Of a DNA stretch of 26,852 nucleotides, positions 2,010 through 24,480 are shown one piece after another. Positions within the stretch are counted from its first letter, which is position 1. Every line of letters starts with the position of its first letter. Made by a program: the position numbers and the translations under genes. Below the pieces are notes generated by a model, which saw nothing but the letters and a program-made list of their open reading frames with translations, was not told where the DNA came from and made no database searches. The stretch comes from a virus (lineage: Duplodnaviria; Heunggongvirae; Uroviricota; Caudoviricetes): positions 1 through 26,852 of IMG/VR virus record IMGVR_UViG_2778261537_000020; one strand, 5' to 3'.

Positions 2010-2600
2010 ATGTCTCGAATTTATGCTTACTGTCGGGTATCAACTCTGGAAAAGACAACCAAAAATCAACGTCGGGAAATCGAAAGTGCAGGTTTTAACA
2101 TCAAATCTCAGCAAATAATTGAAGAACAAATTAGCGGCTCAGCAGCAACCAGTGAGCGTCCTGGTTTTAACCAGTTGCTTGATCGACTGAAAAGAGGTGA
2201 TGCATTGATTGTCACAAAACTGGATCGCCTCGGTTGTAATCCAATGGATATCAGTAAAACGGTGGAACAACTGACCAAAGCAGGTATCAAAGTGCATTGC
2301 TTAGCATTGGGGGGCGTTGACCTGACCAGTCCACCTGGAAAAATGATGATGCAAGTAATTTCAGCAGTCGCTGAATTTGAGCGAGACCTTTTACTTGAGC
2401 GTACTCATTCAGGGATATTAAGAGCACGGGGCGCAGGAAAGCGATTTGGTCGCCCACCTGTGTTAAATGATGAACAAATACAGAGGGTACTAGAGCAAAT
2501 TAAGTCAGGTATAAATATAAGTGACATTGCCCAAGAATTCAAAACCTCGCGGCAAACCATTTTAAGAGCTAAAGCAAAAAATCAGACACCTGATATATAA
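2010..2600 (+). CDS. Small serine recombinase (resolvase/invertase family) with C-terminal HTH
   Basis: 196 aa; N-terminal YAYCRVST (catalytic Ser), resolvase-like core (...[10 protein letters not shown]...), C-terminal ...[40 protein letters not shown]; occupies the pin-like position next to tfa but is not obviously Pin/Gin-like. Confidence 0.8.
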
Positions 2601-2697
2601 AAATAATCTCGGTGTGAGATTCCTTACGTTTTCCAAGCCCCCCTTCCTAGCCTTAAATGGAAAGATACTTCTAATTATAGAATTTATATATCTTACC

Positions 2698-3279
2698 CTA
2701 CGGTAGGGCTGGCCATTCAATATCCGGTGCAGTTGATGTATCAACACGGTTCAGCAACACCCGATACTTTTTCCAGGCTTCCAGCAACAAGGTTTCTTTC
2801 TCCGTTGCGATCTCCAGATCCACAGCATCCTGAAGCGGCGCTATATGCTCACTGGCTACCTGCATCAGGCTGTTTTTTGTTTCTTCCGCCTCCCGGATCC
2901 GGAACAGTTTTTCTGCTTCCGTATCCTTCACCCAGGCTGTGCCGTTCCACTTCTGAAACTCCCCTTCCGGGGATAACCAGGTGACATTTTCCGGTAATGA
3001 GCCGAGTTCAGAAATAAATAACGCGTCGCCGGAAGCCACGTCATAAACCGTTTTACCCCGATGATCTTCAACGAGATGCCACGATGACTCATCACTGTTG
3101 AAAACAGCCACGAAACCAGCCGGAATATCTGGCGGTGCAATATCGGTACTGTTTGCTGGCAGACCTGTATGAGGCGGAATGTATGCGTCACCTTCACCAA
3201 TAAATTCATTAGTTCCGGCCAGCAGATTATAAATTGTTATGGTCCGTGGTTGTTCACTCATTCTGAAATCCATGTTCAC
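2698..3279 (-). CDS. tfa: Tail fibre assembly protein Tfa (lambda Tfa-like)
   Basis: 193 aa; ...[52 protein letters not shown]... matches remembered lambda Tfa almost residue for residue. Confidence 0.85.
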
Positions 3280-3281
3280 CT

Positions 3282-4184
3282 CTACTTAATATCAGAGACA
3301 GAATATTGTTTATTGAGCGTATGGGTGTGAGCACCAATAACGATGCTACTTCCGTGGCTATGTGCGCCAGAGATGACATTACCTACAGGATTTTCTGGAT
3401 TAATCCGGTGTATATGCGAACCAGGGCGAAACCGGTTATTAGCCTGATGTTGTATCAGTACATCATCAGCCTGATGTTCAGGGTTAATACAGACCTGCCC
3501 GGAACGTGAGCAATACGTCCGATAATCGCCGCATCCAATATATTTAGTATCCGCATAACGGCAAACAGAATTACCCGGACAGTATGCATATGTGCCAAAT
3601 ACTGCCGACTGGCGGGATTGTGCGTATTCCCAGTTAATTGATTCTGTTTTTTTATTAAAGTTATCCCATGCCTGCTTCATCTGCCGGGCAACGCTTTCAA
3701 ACGGCACCTGACCACATCCGGCTCCCATTGCAGGGAATACCACCGTCTTTATTTTCCTGTCTGTCGTTGCGTTTTTATTGTGCTGAAAGATAGCAAGTAG
3801 AGCTGCCCAAGTTGCGTTATATACAGCGTCTGTTCCGTCAATTGTCAACGGAACACGCATTGTTGGCGCATGTACCAGCCAGGGGTGATAATTATGCCCC
3901 GTTTCAATAACAAATGCAGAACCTACAGGCTGCTCGCCGAGATATTCACGAAGAATATGATTCTGAACGCGGGCCTGTAGCTGAGAACCGAAGAATGTGG
4001 TAATGGCGGCATCAACACCGCCATCCATCAGGCCGAAACTATTTGCCGCACTTACCATGCAGTCAAATTCTCTGATTGTTTCAAATGGCTTTCCGACAAT
4101 ATTCACATTATCTGCATTTGCAAATACCCGCTTAAATGCTTCAGCCATTTCGGTTACTGGTGCAGAAAGAATGAGCGTAATCAT
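3282..4184 (-). CDS. Macro-domain protein (ADP-ribose-binding/processing fold) with Cys-rich region and His-x-His tail-fibre-tip-like C-terminus
   Basis: 300 aa; macro signature ...[19 protein letters not shown]...; C-terminus ...[20 protein letters not shown] resembles HxH repeats of Stf tips; start overlaps the stf stop (ATGA) and its stop lies 3 nt before tfa. Confidence 0.6.
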
Positions 4185-5683
4185 GCAAGCCTCACAATAT
4201 AGTTAAATGCGATGTTTTTGACGGTGTTTTCCGCGTTACCAGCAGCGTTAACGGTGATGGTGTGTCCATGTGAGCCAATCGCAACCGAGTGCGTATGAGC
4301 ACCAATACCGACAGTATGTGCGTGAGCACCTGCAGATGCAGCTGTGCCGCTGACACTATGAGTGTGCGCTCCTGCAGCACTTGTATTCACACTGGCCGCA
4401 GACACTACCTTATGTACTGACCCATTTTGTGACCACTGGCTGACTGCTGATGCGCCTGTGACACTATGAGTATGGTTTCCGGCACTTGCGGCTGTACCGC
4501 TCACACTGTGCGTATGCGCCCCGATGTTATTCGTGGATTTAGTGCCGTAATCAAACGACGATGTGGTTTTCGTCCCCAAATCCGTACTGGATGCGCTGGC
4601 GCTGTGGGTGTGCGATTTAATGCCGTCCTGTTCCTGAGACAATACGGCCCGACCACTGGCAGGTTTGCCCTTAATCGTCCAGCCACGCATATCAGGGATC
4701 ACGCCTGACGGATAAGCGGCTGCAAGTTTCGGGTATGCAGATTTGTCAAAAGTCTGCCCCTGCATCAGGACATAACCAGACGGAACGGTATCTGATGGCC
4801 ACGGGATTGGTGCACCGACTGGATAAAACTCTGCAGGAGGATGAGCCGAGGTGTAAAGCTGCGCCCACGGCGACCAGTTTGCGTCGGTCGTATCCCGTCG
4901 TGAACGAATAAATGCCGGAGCATGAGCACCGCTTGTACCACTCCAGCCGATGAGTAACTCACCTTCGCCAACGGCTGTCATCCCTTTCAGGTGAATGATA
5001 TTTCCATACGTTGTTGGATATCCGTTGTTATACACCTCGTATAACTCAAGACCTGCTGCCCCCTGCGTATTGTCTGTCAGCGCGGCTACCCGACCTTTTG
5101 AAGCCAGATTAACTGATGATACTGCTGTTCCACCTGACGGTAGCGCCCCGATCTCTGATGCCGTTGGCTTATTTCTGGAGTTATAGTCCCTTCGCCAGCC
5201 AGGTGAATAATCTGTTCCGTGATTAATATAGGTAAACTGGGCGTTGGTTGTTCCGCCACCGCTGGATGTGGTCGGAGTGGTAATGCGGATCGTCATCGCT
5301 GACTTTATCCCCATTACTTCAATGACAGCTCCGGCGAGATGAATATTACCGCAGCCAGTATCAGTAATGATTTTATTATTGCCATAAGACCAGGAACCCT
5401 TGCACATCCAGTATGGATGGTTAAATGCTCCCTGAGAATCCAGCCACTCGATAAACTGTGCAGTCGTCCAGTTTCCTGTTGTTGTGCTTACTGACCCACC
5501 GAAGGCACGGCAGGCACCAATATTTTTCGTAAAGGTGTCTTTGCCAGGGATATCCGCACCGTTCTGATCTTTCTGCAGACGTTTCTCAGCATTGTCATTG
5601 GCTGCTTTTACTGCCTTTGGCGTTGCCGCCAGCGTTTCAGACGTGCTGTTGGTCGCGCTGCTCACCCTTGCGGGCCATGTCAT
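4181..5683 (-). CDS. stf: Side tail fibre protein Stf, distal portion only (5'-truncated by deletion/fusion to H)
   Basis: 500 aa; begins at the internal conserved ...[19 protein letters not shown]... motif and ends ...[31 protein letters not shown] as in lambda Stf; the N-terminal half of Stf is absent. Confidence 0.8.
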
Positions 5684-8162
5684 ACACTGCCTTCATCATC
5701 TGTGGACCTGGCAGACCATTCGTACCGTCGTTCTGAATCACCACGTGATTGTTCTGATTAAAATTAATGCCTTCAGCCCGCCGCATCTGCGCCGGACTTC
5801 CGGCACCGCCCACATAACCACCTTCCGCATAGCCCCGCATCAGGCGGTACAGGTTGCCGACACCAATCCGGCTGGTTGCCTCCTTCGTGAAGACAAATTC
5901 GCCACGGTGAACAATCCCCGCTGGCTCATATTTGCCGCCGGTTCCCGTAAATCCCCCGGTCGCAAAACGGAATTTCGCCGCAGCGGCCTGAATGGCTGTA
6001 CCGCCTGACGCGGATGCTCCACCACTGGCAGCACCGCCAATGGCGCTGCCGATACTCCCGACAATCCCCACCATTGCCTGCTTAAGCAGAATTTCTGTCA
6101 TCATGGACAGCACGGAACGGGTGAAGCTGCGCCAGTTCTGCTCACTGCCGGTCAGCATCGCCGCCATATTCTGTGCAATACCATCAAAGGTCTGCGTGGC
6201 TGCACTTTTAACCTGCGACATACTGTCCGTGGCGCTCTCTTCCCACTCACTCCAGCCGGACTTCAGGCCTGCCATCCAGCTCCCGCGAAGCTGGTCTTCA
6301 GCCGCCCAGGTCTTTTTCTGCTCTGACATGACGTTATTCAGCGCCAGCGGATTATCGCCATACTGTTCCTTCAGGCGCTGTTCCGTGGCTTCCCGTTCTG
6401 CCTGCCGGTCAGTCAGCCCCCGGCTTTTCGCATCAATGGCGGCCCGTTTTGCCCGTTGCTGCTGTGCGAATTTATCCGCCTGCTGCGCCAGCGCGTTCAG
6501 GCGCTCCTGATACGTAACCTTGTCGCCAAGTGCAGCCAGCTGGCGTTTGTACTCCAGCGTCTCATCTTTATGCGCCAGCAGGGATTTCTCCTGTGCAGAC
6601 AGCTGGCGACGTTGCGCCGCCTCCTCCAGTACCGCGAACTGACTCTCCGCCTTCCACAAATCCCGGCGCTGCTGGCTGATTTTCTCATTCGCTCCGGCAT
6701 GCTTCTCCAGCGTCCGGAGTTCTGCCTGAAGCGTCAGCAGGGCAGCATGAGCACTGTCTTCCTGACGATCGCCCGCAGACACCTTCACGCCGGACTGTTT
6801 CGGCTTTTTCAGCGTCGCTTCATAATCCTTTTTCGCCGCCGCCATCAGCGTGTTGTAATCCGCCTGCAGGATTTTCCCGTCTTTCAGTGCCTTGTTCAGT
6901 TCTTCCTGACGGGCGGTATATTTCTCCAGCGGCGTCTGCAGCCGTTCGTAAGCCTTCTGCGCCTCTTCGGTATATTTCAGCCGTGACGCTTCGGTATCGC
7001 TCTGCTGCTGCGCATTTTTGTCCTGTTGAGTCTGCTGCTCAGCCTTCTTTCGGGCGGCTTCAAGCGCAAGACGGGCCTTTTCACGATCATCCCAGTAACG
7101 CGCCCGCGCTTCATCGTTAACAAAATAATCATCCTTGCGCAGATTCCAGATGTCGTCTGCTTTCTTAAACGCAGCCTCTGCCTTAATCAGCATCTCCTGC
7201 GCGGTATCAGGACGACCAATATCCAGCACCGCATCCCACATGGATTTGAATGCCCGCGCAGTCCTGTCTGCCCAGGTCTCCAGCGTGCCCATGTTCTCTT
7301 TCAGGCGGCGGGTCTGGTCATCAAACCCTTTCGTTGCGGCCTCGTTCGCCGCCTGCAATGCCCCGGCTTCATCGCCGGAACGCTGCAACTGAGCAACATA
7401 CGCAATCTGCTCCGCCGTCACGTTATGGAACTGGCGTGCCATCGCCGTCAGCCCCGACGTCGGGTCTGTGGTCAGCTTCCCGAAGGCTTCAGCGACCTTG
7501 TCCACCTCCACGCCGGATGCAGAGGAGAAACGCGCCACACTCTGGCTGATGGACGCAATCTGAGCCTCACCGCTTACCCCCGCCTTAACCAGTGCGCTGA
7601 GTGACTCGCTGGTCTGGTTAAACGTCAGCCCTGCCGCCTGCCCGGCTCTGGACAGGACCAGCATACGATCTGCCGTCAGTCCCGCCTGATTGCCGGAAAG
7701 GACCAGCGTTTTGTTGAAATCGGACAGGGTTGAGTTGCCCTGATACCAGGCATACGCCAGCGCACCGGTCGCCACCGCCAGCGAGGTGGCCCCCACCATC
7801 GGCAGGGTGATCGCACCGGCAAGCCCCCTGAACATGGGGATCATCCCGCCGAAGGAGTCCTTCACCTGCCCCCCCTGTTGCAGCAGGATCAGCCACGGAC
7901 TTTGCCCGCCTGCAAGCTGCGTGGCCACGTCGGTGAACTGTGCAGGCAGCATACGCATGGCGGCTTTATACTGCCCGACGGAAATCCCCGCTTTCTGTGC
8001 AGCCAGCGCCTGTCGGCTCAGCGACTGTTCAACGACTGCCGCTGTTTTTTTCGCATCACTTTCCGTACCGGAAAAATGACGCCTGACTCTGGCCATCTGC
8101 TCGTCAAATCTGGCCGCATCCAGACTCAAATCAACGACCAGATCGCCTACCGGTTCAGCCAT
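5637..8162 (-). CDS. H: Tail tape measure protein H (lambda gpH-like), diverging over the last ~8 residues
   Basis: 841 aa; [30 protein letters not shown]... essentially collinear with remembered lambda H up to ...[10 protein letters not shown], then EQRDQQHV*. Confidence 0.9.
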
Positions 8163-9045
8163 ACCGGACTCCTCCTGCGATCCCTTCTGATACTGTCATC
8201 AGCATTACGTCATCCTCCGTCATGTCCGCCACATCCGGGGAAGCGGGGACATCCGGCGTCCATTTGAGGCCAAACGGCGTCTCTTTGTCGCCAAATTTAA
8301 GATACTGCTCCTCCCCGCAGTGCGGGCAGGCAACATGAAAACGCATAAAATGCGGGGATTCACTGGCTGCACGCTCAATCTGGCAGGTGCCTCTCACTTT
8401 GGGCGTGGAGCCACGGATGGACTTTGGCCAGACCGAGCCTTCAATACGTTTGTCGCCAAGGAACGTCGGAGAGCCTTCCTGTTCAATATCCTCATCAAAG
8501 GCAGCAAGTTCATCATAACCCGCCACATCCACCGACTTTTCACGGTAGTTTTTTGCCGCTTTACCGCCCAGGCACCAGAAGCCACGACCATTGGAAAAAC
8601 GCTTCATAGTGAGCGTGTTATCCCGGTGCTTTTTGCCATACCACGGAGCCAGCGCCAGCAGCGACGGAATATCGCGGATGGTCGGCTCAACGTGGGTTTT
8701 CATAAAGTTCTCGGCATCACCATCCGTCGGCAACCAGATAAGGGTGTTGCGCTGCTTATGCTCTATAAAGTAGGCATAAACACCCAGCAGCATTTTGGAA
8801 TAACCGACACGGGCAGACTTCACCACATTCACCTCACGGATGTAGTCGCTGCCCATCGCATTCATGATGGCCCGCTGAAAGGGCAGTGTTTCCCAGCGCC
8901 CTTCCTGGTATGCGGATTCTTTTGGGAGATAGTAATTGGCATCCGCCCATTCAACGGCGGTCTGTGGCTCCGGCCTGAACAGTGAGCGAAGCCCGGCGCG
9001 GACAAAATGCCGCAGCCTGTTAACCTGACTGTTCGATATATTCAC
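8155..9045 (-). pseudogene. A: Terminase large subunit A, N-terminal ~265 residues then out-of-frame tail (deletion remnant)
   Basis: MNISNSQVNRLRHFVRAGLRSLFRPEPQTAVEWADANYYLPKE... matches lambda gpA up to ...FGLKWTPD, then unrelated 31 aa and a stop 4 nt before the H start; lambda gpA is ~641 aa. Confidence 0.85.
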
Positions 9046-9565
9046 TCAGCAACCCCGGTATCAGTTCATCCAGCGCGGCTGCTTTGTTCATGGCTTTGAT
9101 GATATCCCGTTTCAGGAAATCAACATGTCGGTTTTCCAGTTCCGGAAAACGCCGCTGCACCGACAGGGGGATCCCGTCGAGAATACTGGCAATTTCACCT
9201 GCGATCCGCGACAGCACGAAAGTACAGAATGCGGTTTCCACCACTTCAGCGGAGTCTCTGGCATTTTTCAGCTCCTGTGCGTCGGCCTGCGCACGCGTAA
9301 GTCGATGGCGTTCGTACTCAATAGTCCCTGGCTGGAGATCTGTCTCGCTGGCCTGCCGCAGTTCTTCAACTTCCCGGCGCAGCTTTTCGTTCTCAATTTC
9401 AGCATCCCTTTCGGCATACCATTTTATGACGGCGGCAGAGTCATAAAGCACCTCATTACCCTTGCCACCGCCTCGCAGAACGGGCATTCCCTGTTCCTGC
9501 CAGTTCTGAATGGTACGGATACTCGCACCGAAAATGTCAGCCAGCTGCTTTTTGTTGACTTCCAT
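9020..9565 (-). CDS. nu1: Terminase small subunit Nu1
   Basis: 181 aa, MEVNKKQLADIFGASIRTIQNWQEQGMPVLRGGGKGNEVLYDSAAVIKWY... matches lambda Nu1; 26-nt overlap with A as in lambda. Confidence 0.9.
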   Translation of the reverse strand: MEVNKKQLADIFGASIRTIQNWQEQGMPVLRGGGKGNEVLYDSAAVIKWYAERDAEIENEKLRREVEELRQASETDLQPGTIEYERHRLTRAQADAQELKNARDSAEVVETAFCTFVLSRIAGEIASILDGIPLSVQRRFPELENRHVDFLKRDIIKAMNKAAALDELIPGLLSEYIEQSG

Positions 9566-9741
9566 TGTTCATTCCACGGACAAAAACAGAGAAAGGAAAC
9601 GACAGAGGCCAAAAAGCTCGCTTTCAGCACCTGTCGTTTCCTTTCTTTTCAGAGGGTATTTTAAATAAAAACATTAAGTTATGACGAAGAAGAACGGAAA
9701 CGCCTTAAACCGGAAAATTTTCATAAATAGCGAAAACCCGC

Positions 9742-9753
9742 GAGGTCGCCGCC
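9742..9753. other. cos: cosN cohesive-end sequence (reverse complement of lambda GGGCGGCGACCT), with cosB-like region between it and the Nu1 start
   Basis: Window 9731-9770 gaaaacccgcgaggtcgccgccccgtaacctgtcggatcg is the reverse complement of the remembered lambda right-end/left-end junction ...CGATCCGACAGGTTACG|GGGCGGCGACCTCGCGGGTTTTC. Confidence 0.7.
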
Positions 9754-9954
9754 CCGTAACCTGTCGGATCGCCGGAAAGGACCCGCAAAAATGATAATAA
9801 TTATCATCTACATGTCACAACGTGCATCTACGCCATCAAACCACGTCAAATAATCAATTATGACGCAGGTATCGTATTAATTGATCTGCATCAACTTAAC
9901 GTAAAAACAACTTCAGACAATACAAATCAGCGACACTGAATACGGGGCAACCTC

Positions 9955-10149
9955 ATGTCAACGAAGAACAGAACCCGCAGAACAACAACCCGCAACATCC
10001 GCTTTCCTAACCAAATGATTGAACAAATTAACATCGCTCTTGAGCAAAAAGGGTCTGGGAATTTCTCAGCCTGGGTCATTGAAGCCTGCCGTCGGAGACT
10101 AACGTCAGAAAAGAGAGCATATACATCAATCCAAAGTGATGATGGATGA
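9955..10149 (+). CDS. ylcI: Small phage right-end ORF, YlcI-like (DUF3950-type)
   Basis: 64-aa ORF MSTKNRTRRTTTRNIRFPNQMIEQINIALEQKGSGNFSAWVIEACRRRL...; lies in sequence matching the lambda right arm adjacent to cos. Confidence 0.5.
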   Translation: MSTKNRTRRTTTRNIRFPNQMIEQINIALEQKGSGNFSAWVIEACRRRLTSEKRAYTSIQSDDG

Positions 10150-10508
10150 ACATCCCGGTTTCTTCCACCATCGCACCGGAAAAGCGACTATGAGGGTAAC
10201 CCTGCGTCTGTCAGCACAGTAAAACCCGGTGTGCATCGTTTTTGATTATTCCCGCACACTCACGCAGAAGGAATTCCCCGTCGGGCTACGGTCATGGTTA
10301 ATGCGGGAATACGGCGACGATACAGCGCAGCTAAAAGGGTAATGGACAGATAGAGCGGTTTATTTCATTCCACAGGATTCTGAGTGCCCCCCTCCTCCAA
10401 TAGGCTGAGCATCCACCTATATAGTTTTAATTTTCATCAATCCATTTAACTATCGTTTAATTGTTGTCACATAGGATTCTGCCGTTTTTAACAATGCAGG
10501 ATAATAAG

Positions 10509-10802
10509 ATGAAAAAAATGTTGTTTTCTGCCGCTCTGGCAATGCTTATTACAGGATGTGCTCAACAGACGTTTACTGTTGGAAACAAACCGACAGCAGT
10601 AACACCAAAGGAAACCATCACCCATCATTTCTTCGTTTCGGGAATTGGACAGGAGAAAACTGTTGATGCAGCCAAAATTTGTGGCGGCGCAGAAAATGTT
10701 GTTAAAACAGAAACCCAGCAAACATTCGTAAATGGATTTCTCGGTTTTATTACTTTAGGCATTTATACTCCGCTGGAAGCGCGTGTGTATTGCTCACAAT
10801 AA
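10509..10802 (+). CDS. bor: Bor outer-membrane lipoprotein (serum-resistance moron)
   Basis: MKKMLFSAALAMLITGC lipobox; 97 aa from Met-17 of the track ORF with AGGA RBS; matches lambda Bor. Confidence 0.85.
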   Translation: MKKMLFSAALAMLITGCAQQTFTVGNKPTAVTPKETITHHFFVSGIGQEKTVDAAKICGGAENVVKTETQQTFVNGFLGFITLGIYTPLEARVYCSQ

Positions 10803-10833
10803 TTGCATGAGTTGCCCATCGATATGGGCAGCT

Positions 10834-11295
10834 CTATCTGCACTGCTCATTAATATACTTCTGGGTTCCTTCCAGTTGTTTTTGCATAGTGATCAGCCTC
10901 TCTCTGAGGGTGAAATAATCCCGTTCAGCGGTGTCTGCCAGTCGGGGGGAGGCTGCATTATCCACGCCGGAGGCGGTGGTGGCTTCACGCACTGACTGAC
11001 AGACTGCTTTGATGTGCAACCGACGACGACCAGCGGCAACATCATCACGCAGAGCATCATTTTCAGCTTTCGCATCAGCTAACTCCTTCGTGTATTTTGC
11101 ATCGAGCGCAGCAACATCACGCTGACGCATCTGCATGTCAGTAATTGCCGCGTTCGCCAGCTTCAGTTCTCTGGCATTTTTGTCGCGCTGGGCTTTGTAG
11201 GTAATGGCGTTATCACGGTAATGATTAACAGCCCATGACAGGCAGACGATGATGCAGATAACCAGAGCGGAGATAATCGCGGTTACTCTGTTCAT
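10834..11295 (-). CDS. Rz: Rz i-spanin
   Basis: ...[59 protein letters not shown]... matches lambda Rz; likely start at Met-5 of the track ORF. Confidence 0.9.
10893..11075 (-). CDS. Rz1: Rz1 o-spanin lipoprotein, embedded in the +1 frame of Rz
   Basis: 60 aa [60 protein letters not shown]; lipobox plus proline-rich region, matches lambda Rz1. Confidence 0.85.
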
Positions 11296-11789
11296 TGCTG
11301 ACCCCACAAACAGATTTCACGCTCAATCTCACGACGAGTCATGAGACCTTTCCATTGCTTACCGCCAGCATATGTCCAGCGACGTAGCTGATCACATGCG
11401 CCTTTGATATCGCCCTGGTTTATTTTGCGAAGAAGCGTCGATGTTCTGAAATTGCCAGCACCCACGTTGTAAACGAATGAGTAAAGAGCGCCGCGCATTG
11501 TTTCCGGTATATCGACTTTGATGTACGGGTTAATTTGTCTGGCGACCGTGGCAAGGTCTTTATTCAGGAGGGCTTTGCATTCTGCTTTGGTATACGTTTT
11601 ACCGAGCATGATGTCTTTTCCTGTATGCCCGTGACATACAGTCCATACACCAACAATATCTTTGTATGGTATGTAGCTGACACCTTCCAGACCATCGTTA
11701 CCACTTGGGCCAGTGATTAACACTGATGCTATAGCAATTGCTCCGCCACCAATAGCAGCAGCAACGGCTTTTCGTAATGATGGAGGCAT
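11292..11789 (-). CDS. R: SAR endolysin (phage 21 R21-type lysozyme)
   Basis: 165 aa; N-terminal Gly/Ala-rich signal-anchor-release segment [20 protein letters not shown] followed by a T4-lysozyme-like domain. Confidence 0.85.
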
Positions 11790-12004
11790 TATTCACCTCT
11801 CGCAGCCTTGCGCTTATCTTCTTTAATCTTGAAATAAAGGTTTGTCAGGTACGTCAGCAGGCCAAATACCAGGCTACCCAGCACACCTATTGCTGCCCAC
11901 TGTGAGGGCGTGACTTTATCGAGCAGCTGTAAAAACCAGTAACCGGCACTACCTGCTGAGGTGCCATAGGCGACACCCGTTGTTAACTTATCCATGGATT
12001 TCAT
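11789..12004 (-). CDS. S: Pinholin (phage 21 S21-type), dual-start motif MKSMDK
   Basis: [71 protein letters not shown]; stop overlaps the R start (TAATG); track ORF carries an extra 15-aa upstream extension. Confidence 0.85.
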
Positions 12005-12130
12005 AACCCCACCTCGCAGACAAAGCGGGTGTAAATTGAGGGAATACAACGTATCGCAAAAAAGCAGAAACGTAACAGACTCGGAGTCAGTGAATAACTC
12101 AGGTATTGGGTTATCAGCTAATATCGAGAC

Positions 12131-12165
12131 TCAAAAAATGGAAAAACCCGCTCGACGGCGGGTTT
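12131..12165 (-). terminator. Intrinsic-terminator-like hairpin on the minus strand about 100 bp upstream of S (candidate tR'-like element)
   Basis: aaacccgc-tcgacg-gcgggttt stem-loop at 12144-12165, followed on the minus strand by a U-rich tract (ttccattttttga). Confidence 0.35.
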
Positions 12166-12593
12166 AAGCTGTGTGACGAAGTAACCACTCTTAACAGCAT
12201 AACCAATTTTTTACGTACGTAAACCACAAAATGATATTTGCGAGAATGCTACCGAGTATTGAAAACACCACTACAAATACATAAGCAAATCTCAACAAAT
12301 AACCAACAAATAATTTCCAGTGTTATTTTTAGCCGATTTAAATTGAACCTTCAAATTACAGAGCACTTATAAATAACAGCCGTTAATATAAATTGGCTAA
12401 TAGATTTATTTTTATTCAGCCAAGATCCATGAATAGGATTCGATAGAAAAAAGTTCAGATAAAAATAGAGATCTACTTCACAAATCAAACGAGAAACCAA
12501 AACTTACATCTTGAAATAATCACATTGATTAGATGAATATTTATCGCGCAGTGACATCATTTTTTAATAATAGTTCAAAAAAAAGGGCTCACG

Positions 12594-13676
12594 ATGAAAA
12601 AATTAACAGTGGCAATTTCTGCTGTAGCTGCATCAGTACTGATGGCGATGTCTGCTCAGGCAGCTGAAATTTATAATAAAGACAGTAACAAGCTGGATCT
12701 ATATGGGAAAGTTAATGCCAAGCACTACTTCTCCTCTAATGATGCAGATGATGGTGATACTACTTATGCCCGTCTTGGCTTCAAAGGTGAAACCCAAATC
12801 AACGATCAACTGACTGGTTTCGGTCAGTGGGAATATGAATTCAAAGGCAACCGCGCTGAATCTCAAGGCTCCTCCAAAGACAAAACCCGTCTTGCATTTG
12901 CAGGCCTGAAATTCGGGGACTACGGCTCAATCGATTACGGCCGTAACTACGGTGTAGCATATGACATCGGTGCGTGGACTGACGTTCTGCCAGAATTCGG
13001 TGGCGATACCTGGACCCAAACAGATGTGTTCATGACTGGTCGCACCACTGGTGTTGCAACTTATCGTAACAACGACTTCTTTGGTCTGGTTGATGGTCTG
13101 AACTTTGCTGCTCAGTATCAGGGTAAAAATGACCGCACTGACGTAACTGAAGCTAATGGTGATGGTTTCGGTTTCTCCACTACTTATGAGTATGAAGGAT
13201 TCGGTGTAGGTGCAACCTATGCTAAATCTGACCGCACTAATAATCAGGTTATCTACGGTAACAACAGCCTGAATGCATCTGGTCAAAATGCTGAAGTATG
13301 GGCAGCTGGTCTGAAATATGATGCGAACAACATCTATCTGGCTACCACCTATTCTGAAACCCAGAACATGACTGTTTTTGGTAATAACCATATTGCCAAC
13401 AAAGCACAAAACTTCGAAGTAGTTGCACAATATCAGTTCGACTTCGGTCTGCGTCCGTCCGTTGCTTACCTGCAATCTAAAGGAAAAGACTTGGGTGCGT
13501 GGGGTGATCAGGACCTGGTTGAATATATTGATGTAGGTGCAACCTATTACTTCAACAAAAATATGTCCACTTTTGTTGATTACAAAATCAACCTGATTGA
13601 TAAGAGCGATTTCACGAAAGCATCTGGCGTTGCTACCGATGATATCGTTGCTGTAGGTATGGTTTACCAGTTCTAA
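12594..13676 (+). CDS. nmpC: Outer-membrane general porin, NmpC/Lc (OmpC/OmpF family), apparently intact
   Basis: 360 aa with signal peptide [30 protein letters not shown]... and C-terminal ...VAVGMVYQF porin signature. Confidence 0.9.
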
Positions 13677-13691
13677 TTTGATTACTAAAAG

Positions 13692-13725
13692 ATATGTTGC
13701 GGGAGGCTTTGCCTCCCCAACATAT
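13692..13725. terminator. Long imperfect palindrome/hairpin immediately downstream of the porin gene
   Basis: atatgttgcgggaggc-ttt-gcctccccaacatat read directly. Confidence 0.3.
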
Positions 13726-13813
13726 AAGTGGCTCCCTCAAGCCACTTCCTTTAGGAGCACAACCTTGCTTCTAACTATATAAACCTTCTGTTATATATTA
13801 CCCTTTATTTTTG

Positions 13814-13847
13814 GGGGCGTTGCAACGCCCCATTTTTAATAATTTTT
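13814..13847 (+). terminator. Rho-independent terminator (perfect 18-bp palindrome followed by a T-run) for the porin transcript
   Basis: ggggcgttgcaacgcccc followed by atttttaataattttt. Confidence 0.45.
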
Positions 13848-13864
13848 AGTAAACAATTGGCATA

Positions 13865-14263
13865 TTAATTAGAGTTATTAACAACGATATCCATCTCTAA
13901 CCGGATATCTAATGCCATTAACATCCCTTCAATTATGCCCTCAGCCTTCTGTAACCTTTTCCCGATATAACCATCAGAGCAGCAATGCTTACCTGCCAGT
14001 GACATGAATGTCATACCGACTACATAATAATCTACTAATAAATCGTGCAAATCGCTGTTGTTCTTTTTCAGACGGGCCATGCACCCGCAAATAATCATCG
14101 CGTCATCGTCACAACATTGCGGGCGAGATTTTACTTTTGAAGTAATTAATCCCTTAAAACCGGCGGCAATGGACGACCAGGTCACATCTTCATGATTATT
14201 AGCCGCCCACGCTCCCCAACGCTCAAGAACCATCTGAATATCACGCATCAACTTACTCCACAA
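13865..14263 (-). CDS. Q: Late-gene antiterminator Q (DLP12 QuuD-like)
   Basis: 132-aa ORF (...[24 protein letters not shown]...[16 protein letters not shown]...), Cys-rich zinc-binding region; sits between rusA/ylcG and the lysis cassette. Confidence 0.8.
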
Positions 14264-14333
14264 AAATCAGACCAGCACGCCAATTACAAGCAAAAATCAA
14301 CAAAACAGTATTAGTTGATTGTTATCTCTGACT

Positions 14334-14471
14334 TCATACTCCTGCTCCTGTCAGGGTTTTGGCGTAATTCTTCAGTATTCGGTAATCGGTCAAAACAGAA
14401 CCGGGGAAACGATATAAGCGCAGATGCCCCCAGCGGTGGCGAAGAAGTTCTGCCATATAAAACTCAAACAT
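14334..14471 (-). CDS. ylcG: Small protein YlcG-like (46 aa)
   Basis: Hand translation [45 protein letters not shown]; ATG overlaps the rusA stop. Confidence 0.4.
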   Translation of the reverse strand: MFEFYMAELLRHRWGHLRLYRFPGSVLTDYRILKNYAKTLTGAGV

Positions 14472-14833
14472 CATTCATTCCCCATTTCGGTGATGGTCAG
14501 TTCCAGCCTCCCACCTTTGGTAACAGGCATCTTCACAACGCGGTAATCAACGACCTGAGCATCATCCAGCCAGAAACCTGCTTTGGTGAGTGCGTCAAAA
14601 GCGGCTTTTTGCAGATTATCCAGGTCACGGCGACGGCGATCCGGCATGTGGCACTCAATGCGGATTTTCACAGGCATAGCCAGGCCGATATCCAGCATTG
14701 CGTTTTTAATGATTCGGGCGACGTTATCGCGGTATGCCTGCCCCTCTGCACTGACGTGCGTGCGCCCGCGATTATGGCGGTAATAGCGATTATTGCTCGG
14801 AGGCCAGGGTAATGTGATACTGTAGGTATTCAC
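14471..14833 (-). CDS. rusA: Holliday junction resolvase RusA
   Basis: 120 aa [97 protein letters not shown]... Confidence 0.9.
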
Positions 14834-15120
14834 GCCTTAATAACCCCCTCTTTCAGCCAGATAACCTGTGTTCTCGCCATACCTTCCAGCGCGCATTCTT
14901 TTGCATATGCAGCATCGACAAAATGTGTGCGGCGGTCGATTTCGTCGTGGCAGGCAGAACATGCAATGGTGGCAATCAGGTCTGGCGGTTTGATACCGGT
15001 ACCGCACAATCCAGCCAGCCGGATATGTGCCAGTACAGACGTTTCAGAATTGCCATTACATACGCCAGGGATTCTTACCTGGCATTCCCGACCACGCGCT
15101 GCTTTTCTCAAATCAGCCAT
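14830..15120 (-). CDS. ybcO: YbcO-like nin-region protein (Cys-rich, putative nuclease, DUF1364-type)
   Basis: [42 protein letters not shown]...; 96 aa from the internal Met of the track ORF. Confidence 0.6.
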
Positions 15121-15283
15121 GATTCCTCCTTGCTGCCAGTCGCAACCATTTTTTATCAACCAGGCTAGCGGTATATCCGAGCAGTGTTGGTATTTCGGAT
15201 GGCTTCAGCTCAGGCTTACGCTTACGACGATTTGATACTCTGTAGATGTGTCCGTTCATGACACGAATAAGCGGTGTAGCCAT
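15113..15283 (-). CDS. ninE: NinE
   Basis: Hand translation [56 protein letters not shown]; overlaps the ybcN stop and the ybcO start; not in the ORF track (under 60 aa). Confidence 0.6.
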   Translation of the reverse strand: MATPLIRVMNGHIYRVSNRRKRKPELKPSEIPTLLGYTASLVDKKWLRLAARRNHG

Positions 15284-15738
15284 TACGCCTCCTGCTTGTC
15301 GCGGAGCAGCTGGAACTCGCAGCTCTGCGGAATAGTCAGGTGGCAGCCAATATTCACCGCCCAGGCTTCAACCTTACACAGGAAGACATACATCTCTCCG
15401 GTATCAAGATCGGAGGTATGGCGTAACGACTGGATAGTGGTGATATCACCGGTTACGACATCAACCAGGTCTTTGGTTTCATAACCGAGATATGTGTGTT
15501 TGAGAGCATCTTTTACCCAAGCTGGAGTGGCGAACGTTTTACCCCTGCTGATGAGGTATTCACTGATTTCGCTGTACCACATGTGGCTGAGTGCATTCTG
15601 GGAAAGACTGCGTTTCTCACGCCACGGTTTAAGCACCATGCGAAAGCATTTGCCCTCCTCCAGATAAGGCTGGATCTGCCGACCGATAGCGGTGAAGTTG
15701 CCGCGATGTAATTTGATGCCGTCTTGTGAGAGGTTCAC
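15283..15738 (-). CDS. ybcN: YbcN-like nin-region protein
   Basis: 151-aa [64 protein letters not shown]... Confidence 0.6.
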
Positions 15739-15952
15739 GCTTCACCTCCGCAGAGGTCAAACGCTAGATGCAAAGAATTGCAGGTGCATTTCTGCATCTG
15801 TGAAGGGAGAAGAGAGTTTGGATTGTATGTGCGCATAAACGTCCCCGTTTAGCGCAGAAGTCACCGGAGTTGTTCAGGCTCCGGTGACATAATTATGCCG
15901 TGTTGATTTCCCAAAATCAAAATCGATAGAATTGCTCCTTCTTAAAACACTT

Positions 15953-16750
15953 TTACTCTCTGGAAGCTTTTCTTATCTCTCTTGGTGTTATATTAAAACG
16001 ATTATGAAATCTTTCAGTAAAACGAGAAGGACACTTATAACCATTTTCTCTGGCAATCTCGCTTATAGGTTTTACCGTCGTTTGTATAGCAGACAACGCA
16101 TTATTTAACCTCACATCGTCCAGTATACTTTGGAAACTTACCCCCTCGCTTGCTAGACGGCGATGTAATGTAGAAACAGAAATGTAGAGATATCGAGCAA
16201 CCTTGTTTGCTGTCCATTTTGTGCCGGGTTCGGATAGCAGCAGGTTATAACAACGACTTATCAATGATTGTTTACTATATGATAAAAGTAAATGATTAAC
16301 ATGATTCACTCCTAACGAAAGTAGAACGCCCATTGCTAAGTGCTCCTGAATTTTAGTTGAGAAGCCTCGGGAAACAGATGTTTTTAGTTGCTCCCAACAA
16401 TATATTAACTCAGGATTCTGAGGTAAAAAGAAACTTGTTTTGTTACGTATTTGATCAGTTACCGTATAAAGTTTTTGGAAACTCTCAATTAAATCAATGG
16501 GTAAGTAAAGCATTTCTGCAAGATAAAGCCCTGCTTCAGGATAATTCTCAATATAAAATTCATAACCACAAGGAAATAATATTATTTGATTATTATCAAC
16601 AGTTAAAGTATGCGTCTCCCAATTGATAACTTTCTTTCCCTGACGGATACGACACAAAGCTGGCATAAGAGGCTTAACCCTATGAATCTCATGATGTTTA
16701 TGCATCCGTATTTCTTCGATCTTTAAGTTAGTCTTACCTCTTGCCAGCAT
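15953..16750 (-). CDS. ybcM: AraC/XylS-family transcriptional regulator (YbcM-like)
   Basis: 265 aa; C-terminal AraC-type HTH (...[45 protein letters not shown]...[32 protein letters not shown]); AT-rich gene. Confidence 0.8.
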
Positions 16751-16759
16751 ACTCTCACC

Positions 16760-17311
16760 CTACTTTATCTCATAAACTGGTGTTATCTCAGCGGTTGCGA
16801 TTTTATTAGCATTAAGCATATAACCAACTAACGCTCCGCTGGAGTTAGAATCTACAGGAATCTTTTCAGTTTTTAGAGCCCATACTTTAAACTGGTAATG
16901 ATGTGGTTTATCTCCTTTAGGAGGACATGCGCCACCAAACCCAGCATAGCCAAAATCATTTCGGCCTTGAACAGCACCAGTCGGCAGTTTTGTTCCATCA
17001 CGTCTCCCTGCATCAACGGGCAAATATGTTACTGTTGCTGGAATATTAACAACAGTCCAATGCCACCAACCACTGCCTGTAGGTGCATCTGGATCATATA
17101 CAGTTACGGCAAAGCTTTTGGTACCTTCAGGAACACCAGACCAGGTTAATGAGGGCGATGTATTACCACCTTCACACCCAAATCCAGAAAAGACATGAGA
17201 CGTTGTAAGTTGCTCTCCTGTTTTTATTTCATTACTAGTGACCTGAAATGCTGCAGCCTGCGCAGAAAATGTTATGAATGCCAATACAGTTGAAACGATA
17301 AGTGTTTTCAT
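16760..17311 (-). CDS. ybcL: Secreted PEBP/RKIP-family protein (YbcL-like)
   Basis: 183 aa with signal peptide MKTLIVSTVLAFITFSAQA; ...FAVTVYDPDAPTGSGWWHWTVVNIP... and ...GFGGACPPKGDKPHHYQFKVWAL... PEBP motifs. Confidence 0.75.
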   Translation of the reverse strand: MKTLIVSTVLAFITFSAQAAAFQVTSNEIKTGEQLTTSHVFSGFGCEGGNTSPSLTWSGVPEGTKSFAVTVYDPDAPTGSGWWHWTVVNIPATVTYLPVDAGRRDGTKLPTGAVQGRNDFGYAGFGGACPPKGDKPHHYQFKVWALKTEKIPVDSNSSGALVGYMLNANKIATAEITPVYEIK

Positions 17312-17775
17312 AAAAACCTCTTTGTTATGACCTATCGTTATTTTATTTGATATTCCTTTATCTCATTATGCATAAAGGCGCAATGTTCATGCAAAAGCAA
17401 TCACAATTGTACCCCCAACCCAATTATTTGCCACAATATACACAAAGCACATTGATACTATCTAAAAACTCTGCTTTATTATTAGTAATACCTACGAAAG
17501 TCGGTGTTATTTTTTAACCTACCATTCAAAATACGTGACATACACCATTTTGCTCATAATAATTTGTCACGTATTTTCAGTATTTGAATCTGCGACCAAG
17601 AGTTCTCACCTAACAAATGATTAAGATTGTATAGCTCATTTACTACCCCAATACAGCCGTACAAAACTCGCTTGTGGGAGCAAACAAAGTAATTACCCAT
17701 TAAGTTTCGTCAAAGATAATTAATTCTGTCTTGCACTTTATCACCATAGCATAACTTAAAATCCGAGATCATTAT

Positions 17776-19302
17776 TTAGAAATAAATCTCACCATCAACC
17801 ATATATTTGAGAGCACTTATCGCCTGCTGGGCGGATATTACTTTCATTAAAGGATAGTGTTTAAAAACAATGCCATTCATAAAATAGATATCACAGGTTT
17901 TATTATCCGTATTAATTATGATTTTTTCGAATGTTTTATAGGCAAGTGTACGGCATAACTCTCGTCCATTTTTACTGGTTAAGTCAATAGCATAAAAATC
18001 ACTGAATGAATTTACACCTTTACTCTTCAAAGTTTTCAATGATACCGAAGCCCTTCGTAATTCCTTATCTAATAGTCTTATTTTCTCTGCTATAGCGGTA
18101 ACTTCAGGCGCGACAGACAATGCAACGATTAAATTATTAATTTTCATCTGAAGCTCAATAATTTTTAACTCTAAAGTTTCATTAGCATCTTTCTTGTTTT
18201 CAACTGGTTGAATTTTGCTACAATTAAAAAGCAATTCATTAATGATATTATAATCAACCAAATCTCTTTTTATTGATGGCCTGTCACATCGATGTAATCT
18301 TCTCATCGGACAAACATAATAGCCATGCAAACTTCCAGATACCGCATGAACAATCATGGTATTACCACAAGCCTCACACTTCATAACTGTTCGAAGTAGA
18401 TTTATTAGCATAGGATTCTTGCTACTATTGCTAATACCAAAAGGTGCCAACCGAATTTCCTGTACAGCGTAAAACAAATCATCTGATATGACTCTGGGAT
18501 AATAGCCAGCGATTTCACTTATCCCTTTCCCTCTTGCACGATATGAAGGTACGCATATACCTATCAGAGCTTTATTCGCTAATAATTTTTCAATTACAGA
18601 AGGTCCCCATGCACTTTCTTTTCCTGAGAAATTCTTTACAGCATGATCATTTAAATACTTGGCTATTGCATTCAATGAGCGCCTTTCCATCCTGAGTTTA
18701 AAAATTAGCTCAATAGTTTTCACCCTGTCGGGGTCTGGAACAAAAGCCGTTCTTTTGTCATCTAAGGAGAGCCATCTCGGACAAGACGCCGTCATAATCG
18801 TACCTGATTCCAGTGCATCCTGCCGTTTTTTCTTCCATGATAATTTAACCCGACTTGACTTTATCTCGCTTTCTTCATTTGCCCTTTGTGCTATAAGTAT
18901 GGCTTTTATTAATGAATATGGCTCATTCAAAGAGTCAATATTATAGACTGTATGGTCGCAAAGAGTTATAACATCAATACCGTGATTCAAAATCAATTTC
19001 AGACGTTCAATCGCTTCACCGACTTTTTCTCTTGAAAGTCTGTCCAGACTTTCAACTAACAATGTAGTTCCTGGCAATATATAACCATGCTCTATAGCAT
19101 CTAAAAATTCCGAAAAAGCTCCTGATTGTGCATGCTTTCCTTTGAATGCACTTAATCCTAAATCTTCATATGTTATGGTATCAAGATAATAATCACTATT
19201 TACCTTTAACCATTCAGCAATAAGTCTTCTCTGTCGGTTTAATGAGTCGCCAGACATCTGACCTGGTGATGAAAATCGCATATATGCTATGGCTTTTTTC
19301 AT
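17776..19302 (-). CDS. ybcK: Large serine recombinase (YbcK-like): resolvase catalytic domain, recombinase domain, Cys-rich zinc ribbon
   Basis: 508 aa; N-terminal AIAYMRFSSPGQ...SLNRQ (catalytic Ser), ...VESLDRLSR...; later ...KCEACGNTM...YYVCPMRRLHRCD; AT-rich. Confidence 0.85.
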   Translation of the reverse strand: MKKAIAYMRFSSPGQMSGDSLNRQRRLIAEWLKVNSDYYLDTITYEDLGLSAFKGKHAQSGAFSEFLDAIEHGYILPGTTLLVESLDRLSREKVGEAIERLKLILNHGIDVITLCDHTVYNIDSLNEPYSLIKAILIAQRANEESEIKSSRVKLSWKKKRQDALESGTIMTASCPRWLSLDDKRTAFVPDPDRVKTIELIFKLRMERRSLNAIAKYLNDHAVKNFSGKESAWGPSVIEKLLANKALIGICVPSYRARGKGISEIAGYYPRVISDDLFYAVQEIRLAPFGISNSSKNPMLINLLRTVMKCEACGNTMIVHAVSGSLHGYYVCPMRRLHRCDRPSIKRDLVDYNIINELLFNCSKIQPVENKKDANETLELKIIELQMKINNLIVALSVAPEVTAIAEKIRLLDKELRRASVSLKTLKSKGVNSFSDFYAIDLTSKNGRELCRTLAYKTFEKIIINTDNKTCDIYFMNGIVFKHYPLMKVISAQQAISALKYMVDGEIYF

Positions 19303-19556
19303 GGTGACACCTGCTAACGTATGCTTTTATAAACCTTAGTGGTGGGATATAATTTTTGTTTAATTTTTATTTAAAAAGACAATTAAGGTCACATTATCTT
19401 GAATATACAACAATAATGGTATTGCATTTTTCTTACGCGATAATCTTGAAATCACAAAAGAATACATAAAAAATAAAGACATTAACAAAAAGCATAAAAC
19501 GAGGCTCATATAAATATAAGAGCCTCCATATTTTAGTCGTTTAGAAACAAATTATT

Positions 19557-19889
19557 TTAATGTGGTGTGCTTCGTGACAATAAATTAATAACCAACACAC
19601 CGGCACAAATCAACATCATGCCTATAATGGCTGGCAGGTCCAGCCGTTGGCCGAAAAATCCCCATGACAGTAAGCTAATCAGGACAATACCGACTCCTGA
19701 CCAGATAGCATAAGCAATCCCTGTAGGAATATAAGCCAGCGTCTGAGCTAATAACCAGAATGATGCACAATAACAAATAATTGTACCAACAGATGGCCAT
19801 AACCGTGTAAAACCTTCTGAAAACTTCATTAAGGTTGTACCAATGACCTCTGCAAGTATTGCACCACCAAGATAAATATAAGGGTTCAT
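19557..19889 (-). CDS. emrE: Small multidrug resistance efflux transporter EmrE
   Basis: MNPYIYLGGAILAEVIGTTLMKFSEGFTRLWPSVGTIICYCASFWLLAQTLAYIPTGIAYAIWSGVGIVLISLLSWGFFGQRLDLPAIIGMMLICAGVL...; 110 aa from the internal Met of the track ORF. Confidence 0.9.
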   Translation of the reverse strand: MNPYIYLGGAILAEVIGTTLMKFSEGFTRLWPSVGTIICYCASFWLLAQTLAYIPTGIAYAIWSGVGIVLISLLSWGFFGQRLDLPAIIGMMLICAGVLVINLLSRSTPH

Positions 19890-19956
19890 AGCATATTCTT
19901 TCCTGTTCAAACTGGAGAGAATTGTACTACAGTTTGAACTCAACTCACCTGTTTCA

Positions 19957-20259
19957 TCATTGTGTTCCCATTGATGTTCTTTTATATACCCTCAGTACCC
20001 GTTTCATCGCGGCACTCTGGCGACACTCCTTAAAAATCAGATTCGTGCTCACCTTTCCTTCCCGTTCTTCTCTGGTAGCGAACCGGTAATACACCGTTCG
20101 CCAGACCTTACCATCAACGACCAGGATTCCTGCCCGCGCCATTTTAGCCGCAGCCTGATTTATGCTGGTTACGGTTGCGCCTGTTACCGCGGCAACGTCC
20201 TGTGCACAGAAGCTCTTATGCGTCCCCAGGTAATGAATAATTGCCTCTTTGCCCGTCAT
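19957..20259 (-). CDS. ren: Ren (Rex-exclusion) protein, lambda-like
   Basis: 100 aa MTGKEAIIHYLGTHKSFCAQDVAAVTGATVTSINQAAAKMARAGILVVDGKVWRTVYYRFATREEREGK...; position immediately after P. Confidence 0.7.
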   Translation of the reverse strand: MTGKEAIIHYLGTHKSFCAQDVAAVTGATVTSINQAAAKMARAGILVVDGKVWRTVYYRFATREEREGKVSTNLIFKECRQSAAMKRVLRVYKRTSMGTQ

Positions 20260-20957
20260 ACACTTGCTCCTTTCAGTCCGAACTTAGCTTTGATTTCTGC
20301 GATCTTCGCCAGAGCCTGTGCACGATTTAGAGGTCTACCGCCCATGACAGGAAGTTGTTTTACTGGTTCAGGTATCGCCTCACCACGGTTAATTCGCGCG
20401 GTCATACAGGACAGTTCATCGGCAGCCTTGCGCCGTAATTCCGCGTCAGTCAACGCATTGGCCCGCATGTTCTGATACAGGTTGGTAACCAGCCAGTAGT
20501 GCGCGTTTGATTTCCACGGATAAGACTCTGCATCCGGATACAGACCACGCTTCCGGCAATACTCGTAAACCATATCAACCAGCTCGCTGACGTTTGGCAG
20601 CCCGGCGGTAACGGATGCTTCTTCCCGGCACCATGCAACAAACTGCCCGGGTGATGGCAGAAATGGTCTATTCTGCCGACGGGCAACACGCATTCCGGCG
20701 CTCACCTGTTCCATCGTGGTGATCCCGTTTTCCCGGAAAGCCAGAACCCACTGGCGGCGGATTTCGTTCAGTTCGTTCTGGTCACGATTAGCCAGGCTCG
20801 CCGGGAAAGTTGCCAGTAACTGGCTGAATACACCGTTGATTATCTGCGCTACCTGCTGTACCTGCGGCTTTTCGTCGTACTGTTCCGGCATGTTGTTGGC
20901 GATCCGACGCATCTGCTCACGGTCAAAGTTAATCATCTGTGCGGCGATGTTTTTCAT
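20256..20957 (-). CDS. P: Replication protein P (DnaB helicase loader)
   Basis: 233 aa MKNIAAQMINFDREQMRRIANNMPEQYDEKPQVQQVAQIINGVFSQLLATF..., near-identical to remembered lambda P. Confidence 0.9.
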   Translation of the reverse strand: MKNIAAQMINFDREQMRRIANNMPEQYDEKPQVQQVAQIINGVFSQLLATFPASLANRDQNELNEIRRQWVLAFRENGITTMEQVSAGMRVARRQNRPFLPSPGQFVAWCREEASVTAGLPNVSELVDMVYEYCRKRGLYPDAESYPWKSNAHYWLVTNLYQNMRANALTDAELRRKAADELSCMTARINRGEAIPEPVKQLPVMGGRPLNRAQALAKIAEIKAKFGLKGASV

Positions 20958-22509: not shown

Positions 22510-22578
22510 AATTGACTCCTTTAGTTTGAATTGACTGTTAAGTTGATTGCTTATTGTTAAAGAGCGTGAAATGGAAAT

Positions 22579-22809: not shown

Positions 22810-22836
22810 AACAACCTCCGTGGTTAATTTGAATCA

Positions 22837-22870: not shown

Positions 22871-22878
22871 ATTTTCGT

Positions 22879-24405: not shown

Positions 24406-24480
24406 TCCCCTTTCCTGTTTTCCTAATCAGCCTGGCATTTCGCGGGCGATATTTTCACAGCTATTTTCAGGAGGTCAGCC

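Follow-up and report, generated by a model that had tools for sequence, protein, structure and literature searches.

A lambda-type cos site and an intact Nu1 gene in a defective DLP12-family prophage of Escherichia coli

The prophage and its deletions

The stretch of DNA under study, 26,852 bp long and referred to throughout as the window, is, by its gene content and surroundings, a defective lambdoid prophage of the Escherichia coli DLP12 family, located at argU and lying in the window in reverse orientation. Genes were assigned by Pfam and PHROG scans and by comparison with annotated genomes. Read in minus-strand order, the element starts with Int', exo, bet, gam, kil, the repressor, a cro-like gene, a ydaT-like gene, O, P and ren, continues through emrE-ybcK-ybcL-ybcM-ybcN-ninE-ybcO-rusA-ylcG-quuD to a porin, S, R, Rz, bor/iss and ylcI, and ends with cos, Nu1, a truncated A (A'), H', a tail-fibre C-terminal gene, a macro-domain gene, tfa, a Pin-type invertase and ybcY. 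In sister contigs and in the related prophage of SI-NP020, appY and ompT follow beyond window position 1, and the tRNA-Arg gene (argU) and fimZ follow beyond the intD stop at the window end. The family assignment is based on this site, between argU/fimZ and appY-ompT, and on the gene order from emrE through nohD, in which nmpC, essD, rrrD, rzpD, bor and ylcI come between quuD and nohD and which annotated relatives share; window positions 13638-20170 are, in addition, 99.3% identical to the DLP12 prophage of K-12. With ~60 bp to attL and ~3.0 kb to attR added to the 26,852 bp of the window, both distances being taken from alignment with K-12 and the sister contigs, the size of the element comes to ~29.9 kb. 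Its main protein-coding features are as follows.

3282-4184, minus: macro-domain gene, 300 aa (Pfam Macro PF01661, E = 5.9e-19; PHROG 2613, function unknown)
5637-8162, minus: tape-measure gene H, 841 aa, retained except for the ~20 C-terminal codons, which are replaced (Pfam TMP_2, Tape_meas_lam_C)
8155-9045, minus: A', truncated terminase large subunit (Pfam GpA_ATPase, 3-216 of 247 only)
9020-9565, minus: nu1/nohD, terminase small subunit, 181 aa, full length (Pfam Phage_Nu1, 1-164 of 164, E = 3.9e-101)
12594-13676, plus: porin, an intact nmpC/ompC-like moron (Pfam Porin_1; porin annotation in related prophages)
19557-19889, minus: emrE (Pfam Multi_Drug_Res; coordinates from the annotated emrE in SI-NP020)
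26397-26852, plus: truncated integrase, 18 aa of a DUF1382 protein in frame with IntD ~254-387 (junction at 26446-26448)

Three recent deletions made this prophage defective, one running from codon 266 of A almost to the end of T, one from the end of H to the middle of the tail-fibre gene, and one from xis to Int codon 253. The first is seen against the full-length prophage of C8, where it joins position 14756 of the C8 sequence (L001) to position 23697, with a loss of ~8.9 kb and a 5-bp overlap at the junction (8245-8249); what is lost comprises codons 266-641 of A, the genes from W to G and the greater part of T. This agrees with the initial annotation, which had described A as truncated and W to T as absent: A stops after codon 265 and is joined to the last ~95 nt of T, which remain. 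The same annotation had held the element incapable of making capsids, and indeed the 26,852-bp window is devoid of genes for portal, protease, decoration or capsid proteins. The second deletion has its break at ~5663, where homology to C8 stops and beyond which lies the tail-fibre C-terminal gene (4181-5683); lost with it are the last part of H, the genes M, L, K, I and J, and the first part of the tail-fibre gene. The third, of 2030 bp, joins position 17449 of the SI-NP020 sequence (L007) to position 19480 and takes the xis region together with the first 253 residues of IntD, among them the first catalytic Arg. Because the exact Int-DUF1382 fusion protein is on record in 125 blocks of public assemblies and the A' deletion in 48, the Int deletion is probably the older of the two; they are found on the same contig.

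Several observations concern the genes around the tail region. The macro-domain gene is placed between the tail-fibre C-terminal gene and the tail-fibre assembly gene (2698-3279), an unusual place for an ADP-ribose-binding or -removing domain, and its product could have an anti-defence or a tail-associated function. The Pin/Gin-type DNA invertase (2010-2600, plus) adjoins the tail-fibre and assembly genes (2698-5683, minus), an arrangement that, by analogy with e14 and Mu, suggests a host-range inversion switch; a search for inverted repeats around the invertase and tail-fibre genes gave none that was convincing, the one pair noted being 21 nt long with 81% complementarity. A match to the Rfam candidate RNA IS009 (2732-2930, minus; 218 bits, gathering threshold 117) lies wholly within the tail-fibre assembly gene. 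One sister contig (L015, Logan ERR9804773) has a further internal deletion at its positions 2335-4183, with a tape-measure ORF of 327 aa and a tail-fibre ORF of 306 aa, which points to ongoing, stepwise decay of the tail region with cos and Nu1 unaltered.

The terminase genes

The small subunit gene, which the initial annotation had called intact, encodes a protein of full length that differs by 2 aa from lambda Nu1, by 1 from K-12 NohD and by none from the Nu1 of PhiR68_2, a live, plaque-forming phage that has been used in spotting and infection assays (bioRxiv 10.1101/2025.11.03.685801). The two residues unlike lambda, 75 and 132, are beyond the N-terminal recognition helix (17-24) and wing (31-39), and the distance from the Nu1 start to cos is that of lambda.

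Comparison with lambda A resolves A' into A residues 1-265 followed by 31 unrelated residues. It holds most of the Pfam GpA_ATPase domain, and the nuclease and portal-binding parts are gone; the TerS-binding domain of A sits in its N-terminal part (PMC9026076).

The cos site

Sub-sites were defined after Murialdo & Feiss 2022 (PMC9026076) and two papers of the Feiss laboratory (PMC4669245, PMC4856287), and the window minus strand was aligned to lambda (NC_001416) with the right end of the latter joined to its left end. The sub-sites were located as follows.

9590-9605, minus: cosB R1, CTGTCGTTTCCTTTCT (exact match, identical to lambda)
9631-9646, minus: cosB R2, AGAAAGGAAACGACAG, inverted relative to R3 and R1 (exact match, identical to lambda)
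9664-9676, plus: I1, the IHF-site core between R3 and R2, WATCAANNNNTTR with 1 mismatch (string match)
9690-9705, minus: cosB R3, lambda bp 50-65, with the TerS contact segment (bp 55-63) at 9692-9700 (exact match; coordinates from PMC9026076)
9705-9737, minus: I2 spacer, lambda bp 18-50, with the critical bp 30-35 at 9720-9725 (identical to lambda; definition from PMC4856287)
9741-9756, minus: cosN, 16 bp, CGGGGCGGCGACCTCG, which is GGGCGGCGACCT with a 2-bp CG flank at each nick (exact match; 16-bp definition from PMC9026076)
9778-9784, minus: cosQ, GGGTCCT, the signal that terminates packaging (exact string and lambda alignment)

The window contains a single copy of the 12-nt cohesive end of lambda, GGGCGGCGACCT, located at 9743-9754 of the minus strand; with up to one mismatch allowed, 0.06 matches would be expected by chance. 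The initial annotation had recognised it on the correct strand, with coordinates (9742-9753) that are one base off, and had read the flanking sequence as lambda cos. The latter reading is confirmed at every sub-site and can be extended, since cosQ falls beyond the span of 9566-9770 that had been assigned to it. cosQ, cosN, I2, R3, I1, R2 and R1 are each base-for-base identical to lambda and spaced as in lambda, the R3-R2 interval is identical as a whole, and no mutation is found at the cosN nick positions or in the R-sites.

Overall, the window follows NC_001416 over the joined ends, between bp 48487 and bp 384, with the exception of one G (lambda bp 138); lambda bp 1-200 is fully matched apart from this base of the reference. 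In a five-way alignment, the G is also missing from lambda DE3, PhiR68_2, K-12 DLP12 and the full-length C8 prophage, the last of which is identical to the window throughout the compared cos region. The extra G of NC_001416 sits between R2 and R1 (between 9617 and 9618 of the window). That the one-base gap might represent a spacing defect in cosB was considered and ruled out, as the gap is common to lambda DE3 and the other lambdoids aligned; the G is probably a peculiarity of the lambda reference record and not a real polymorphism of functional cos sites. All other differences between window and lambda are confined to lambda bp 48427-48486, outside all defined sub-sites, and are mostly common to PhiR68_2, the exception being one extra T in a T-run. 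Those nearest to cosQ, at 48471 and 48486, also occur in PhiR68_2 and are outside the 7-bp site itself, which we take to be lambda bp 48473-48479 (coordinates after Wieczorek & Feiss 2001).

The lambda segment from 48442 to 178, which suffices for a working cosmid (PMC4856287), corresponds to about 9578-9816 of the window. Those features of a lambda cos that can be tested in sequence are all present, namely a CG-flanked cosN, a cosQ at lambda spacing, a cosB with the order R3-I1-R2-R1, and a cognate Nu1. Rfam and promoter/terminator scans of the cos region added nothing to this picture. Judged by its sequence, the site would be a fully competent lambda cos accompanied by its cognate TerS gene, and a terminase of lambda specificity, given in trans, should recognise and cut it, an expectation that is based also on K-12 DLP12 (PMC3945230).

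Probable recent inheritance from apparently complete relatives

Over 17.4 kb (window 9000-26448), the element is 99.954% identical to the SI-NP020 prophage, which in the stretch inspected carries a full-length terminase gene A, and over 7.7 kb (window 8245-15920) it is 99.857% identical to the C8 prophage, which has a full set of head and tail genes. At that divergence, ~0.1 substitutions are expected in the 239 bp of cos, and nothing special therefore has to be invoked for the intact state of the site. The sister contigs, which share the A' deletion, show 1-4 base differences in 19 kb and an identical cos. In contig AAWKSS010000003.1 of GCA_014815405.1, this cos is located at about 165,292-165,303, oriented for packaging to lower coordinates. 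The A'-T junction had 0 spanning hits in 5426 complete E. coli genomes and 0 hits in species-representative genomes, and was found, by exact-protein look-up, in draft assemblies and sequencing runs (at least 48 blocks).

We consider it the best explanation, with a probability of roughly 80%, that the complete cos and Nu1 are the inheritance of a recently deleted DLP12-family prophage, which is no self-mobilising cos satellite or cosmid. Both would be intact because they lie outside the deletions and have had almost no time to decay, not because they are kept for a purpose.

One purpose that they could be thought to serve is to the benefit of the host, with cos, Nu1 and A' acting together as a decoy or interference module that titrates or misdirects the lambda-specificity terminase of an invading phage. 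Such a module would have its parts in place, as Nu1 is intact and A' keeps the N-terminal part, where the TerS-binding domain is located, as well as most of the ATPase domain; the Rpp proteins of PICIs, moreover, sequester TerS and thereby block lambda packaging (PMC6739421). The succession of cos, Nu1 and a truncated A also recurs in K-12 DLP12 and, with nohA, in Qin, and this recurrence could hint at selection and not chance. Near-zero divergence from full-length relatives, however, explains the retention without selection, and we regard a host-benefit function as extremely improbable. Lambda, furthermore, grows normally on K-12, which carries the DLP12 and Qin copies of cos and noh, and this counts against interference.

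Limits on mobilisation

What the site could mobilise depends on its orientation and surroundings. Lambda packaging is one-way, the terminase keeping hold of the cosB-bearing end and moving in the direction cosN-cosB-Nu1, and it ends at a downstream cos, where both cosQ and cosN are needed (PMC9026076; PMC4669245). In the element, packaging would head to lower coordinates, that is, to window position 1. The initial annotation had suggested that a helper could mobilise the porin, emrE and the macro-domain gene, which is not supported. The porin and emrE both lie on the cosQ side, behind the start point and opposite to the packaging direction; the macro-domain gene is the only named cargo on the packaged side. 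In one sister assembly (L009, GCA_958429655.1), an MFS sugar transporter and a mannitol dehydrogenase are found at 18375-20891 instead of ybcY, appY and ompT, and as this assembly differs beyond the invertase, the content of the packaged side varies between strains.

Terminases of the cos type need a second cos for the terminal cut, without which protruding DNA blocks the joining of tails (PMC6687093), and cos phages are reportedly without lateral transduction (PMC12829572). We found no second cosN elsewhere in the window, including the 9.7 kb ahead of cos, and none in the sister contigs, which cover 11.6 kb beyond cos and reach ~1.8 kb past the window; the other cos-like site whose distance the initial annotation had wanted to know was thus seen in neither. 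For the chromosome further on, we used the K-12 backbone as a stand-in for the source strain, a second cos 37-51 kb off or a tandem prophage at argU being outside the sequence covered. In the next 50 kb downstream of DLP12, this proxy contains no cosN at 0-1 mismatches, and the number of its two-mismatch matches is at chance level (5 found, 5.55 expected). The only one of these on the same strand is a pseudo-cos in fepG/fepD, ~40.7 kb from the K-12 DLP12 cos, which we rejected as a terminator, given its 2 mismatches and its lack of a cosQ and of CG flanks.

These searches bear on a further possibility, namely that the site acts as the start or stop for the packaging of a chromosomal segment of 37-51 kb bounded by lambda-type cos sites of the same orientation, with the partner cos contributed by a tandem phage at argU or by a neighbouring prophage, as in 'helper packaging' dilysogens. 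In engineered dilysogens, including ones with partial prophages, helpers do package such segments, at ~0.7-2 particles per cell (PMC4669245), and partner sites are plentiful in the species: a lambda-type cos is found in 4592 of the 5426 complete E. coli genomes (85%), in a median of 2 places and in up to 8. With no second cos in the 9.7 kb of window ahead or in the 11.6 kb of the sister contigs, and with a K-12 proxy that lacks a cosN at 0-1 mismatches and has at ~40.7 kb only a hit without cosQ and CG flanks, we consider transduction from cos to cos unlikely. Taken together as one alternative, terminase decoy or interference on the one hand, or a ~45-kb cos-to-cos segment arising after tandem lambdoid lysogeny at argU on the other, appears quite unlikely; if true, the ~45-kb segment would package as a viable hybrid genome with the early region, porin and emrE of the element, and packaging from cos to cos in a tandem lysogen would be the natural counterpart of the 'helper packaging' of laboratory dilysogens.

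The initial annotation had proposed, more broadly, that the element could be packaged in trans by a lambda-like helper, in the manner of a cos satellite or cosmid, by which the porin, emrE and the macro-domain gene would be spread. The part of this proposal that concerns the site itself stands, as cos is complete, Nu1 is intact and both appear competent by sequence. A lambda cos cloned in a non-transferable plasmid is, in addition, sufficient for its transfer by lambda (PMC6739421), and as the repressor, cro-like, O and P genes are retained, some replication may be possible. The part that concerns transfer is not supported. With Int lacking residues 1-253 and the xis region gone, the element should be incapable of self-excision. 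At ~29.9 kb, its monomer has 62% of the length of lambda and its dimer 123%, both outside the packaging range; lambda heads accept roughly 78-105% of lambda length, and the ~30-kb element therefore fits as neither. Packaging in situ would head away from the porin and emrE, there is one cos only in the window and sister contigs, and the element shows no Rpp-type redirection protein and an unaltered cosB. On these predictions the element cannot act as a self-mobilising cos satellite or cosmid, and we consider packaging of the whole element by a helper very unlikely. Possession of a cos is not enough for a defective prophage to be mobilised: direction, a second cos spaced by a head length, excision and size must all fit, and none of them fits for the porin or emrE here.

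Likely consequences of cutting at cos

Encounters with other lambdoid phages may have consequences. The lambda-specificity terminase of a co-resident or superinfecting helper would bind R3, R2 and R1 together with IHF and nick the chromosomal cosN. A first likely outcome would be a double-strand break that stimulates recombination between phage and prophage, through which hybrid phages could gain genes with homology on both sides of cos, such as the interval from bor/iss to ylcI, which separates the lysis genes from Nu1. A second would be abortive packaging in situ toward Nu1, A', H', the macro-domain gene, appY, ompT and the chromosome, which would not be completed because there is no downstream cos. 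If the element, which retains its repressor, O and P genes, replicated in situ after induction, its copies might become locally more numerous and these outcomes be altered.

The region of homology between lambda and DLP12 spans cos (De Paepe et al. 2014, PMC3945230), and about half of the junctions in lambda x DLP12 recombinants are right at cos, for which the authors invoke breaks made by terminase; recombinant lambdas with nu1, R or Rz from DLP12 are viable, and nohD is functional in lambda (PMC3945230). By analogy, a hotspot of breakage and recombination for incoming lambdoid phages would be the best-supported role of the cos described here, and homologous recombination into lambdoid phages, stimulated by terminase cutting, the realistic route by which its cargo genes could spread. 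PhiR68_2 has a porin moron at the same position as the porin of the window, and such genes therefore travel on complete phages. Kotani et al. are said to have found in 1992 that lambda terminase cuts the K-12 chromosome at prophage cos sites; this carries no weight in our argument.

The cos of DLP12 and its functional nohD have been published before (PMC3945230). The finding carries little weight as a discovery, as nearly all E. coli have chromosomal lambda-type cos sites in defective prophages and the case of DLP12 has been partly tested by experiment (PMC3945230); its useful outcome is a correction regarding what a lone cos can mobilise.

Comparison with known systems

Cos-type PICIs (e.g., EcCICFT073) and cosmids share with the element a lambda-like cosQ and cosN, and both of these systems depend on the capsids and terminase of a helper. 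The cos-type PICIs of E. coli excise, replicate, have a cosB that is not that of lambda and encode an Rpp that redirects TerS (PMC6739421), and a cosmid replicates autonomously and forms multimers in which the cos sites are correctly spaced. The element, in contrast, has a standard cosB and Nu1, no Rpp, an apparently dead integrase and an unsuitable size. Set against the PICIs, it is predicted to lack integration and excision functions (with Int ~254-387 only and xis gone), and it lacks an Rpp, an altered cosB and a capsid-compatible size; set against a cosmid-like replicon, it is integrated between argU and ompT, by all appearances with no means of excision.

The passive partial prophages in 'helper packaging' dilysogens of the Feiss type are likewise non-excising chromosomal fragments; their cos is used in situ by the terminase of a helper, in a set direction (PMC4669245). 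They differ in that a second cos is located one genome length downstream, whereas none is seen in the window or sister contigs. Lambda itself has the same defined sub-sites, spacing and Nu1 distance as the element; the difference lies in the context, the cos of the window being a single chromosomal copy and not part of a concatemer, and having after it a truncated A but none of the head genes.

The nearest known counterpart is the DLP12 prophage of K-12, with the same flanks (argU/fimZ on one side, appY/ompT on the other), the same order from emrE to nohD, and a cos that is accompanied by a truncated A as well as an intact Nu1 homologue. The truncation of A is at codon 265 in the window and at about codon 100 in DLP12 (the aaaD pseudogene), and in the window it is Int that has been destroyed, not xis alone. 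The cos of DLP12 (16515-16845 of its sequence, L005) carries 5 substitutions, at lambda bp 48472, 53, 73, 85 and 102, and that of the window none; the change at bp 53 is inside R3 and outside the contact segment 55-63, and the one at 48472 adjoins cosQ. Overall, decay has gone much less far in the element of the window, which still has its repressor, cro, O, P, gam, bet and exo genes, as well as the tape-measure gene, a tail-fibre fragment, the macro-domain gene and the invertase. The nmpC of DLP12 is interrupted by IS5, whereas the porin of the window, between Q and the lysis cassette, is intact.
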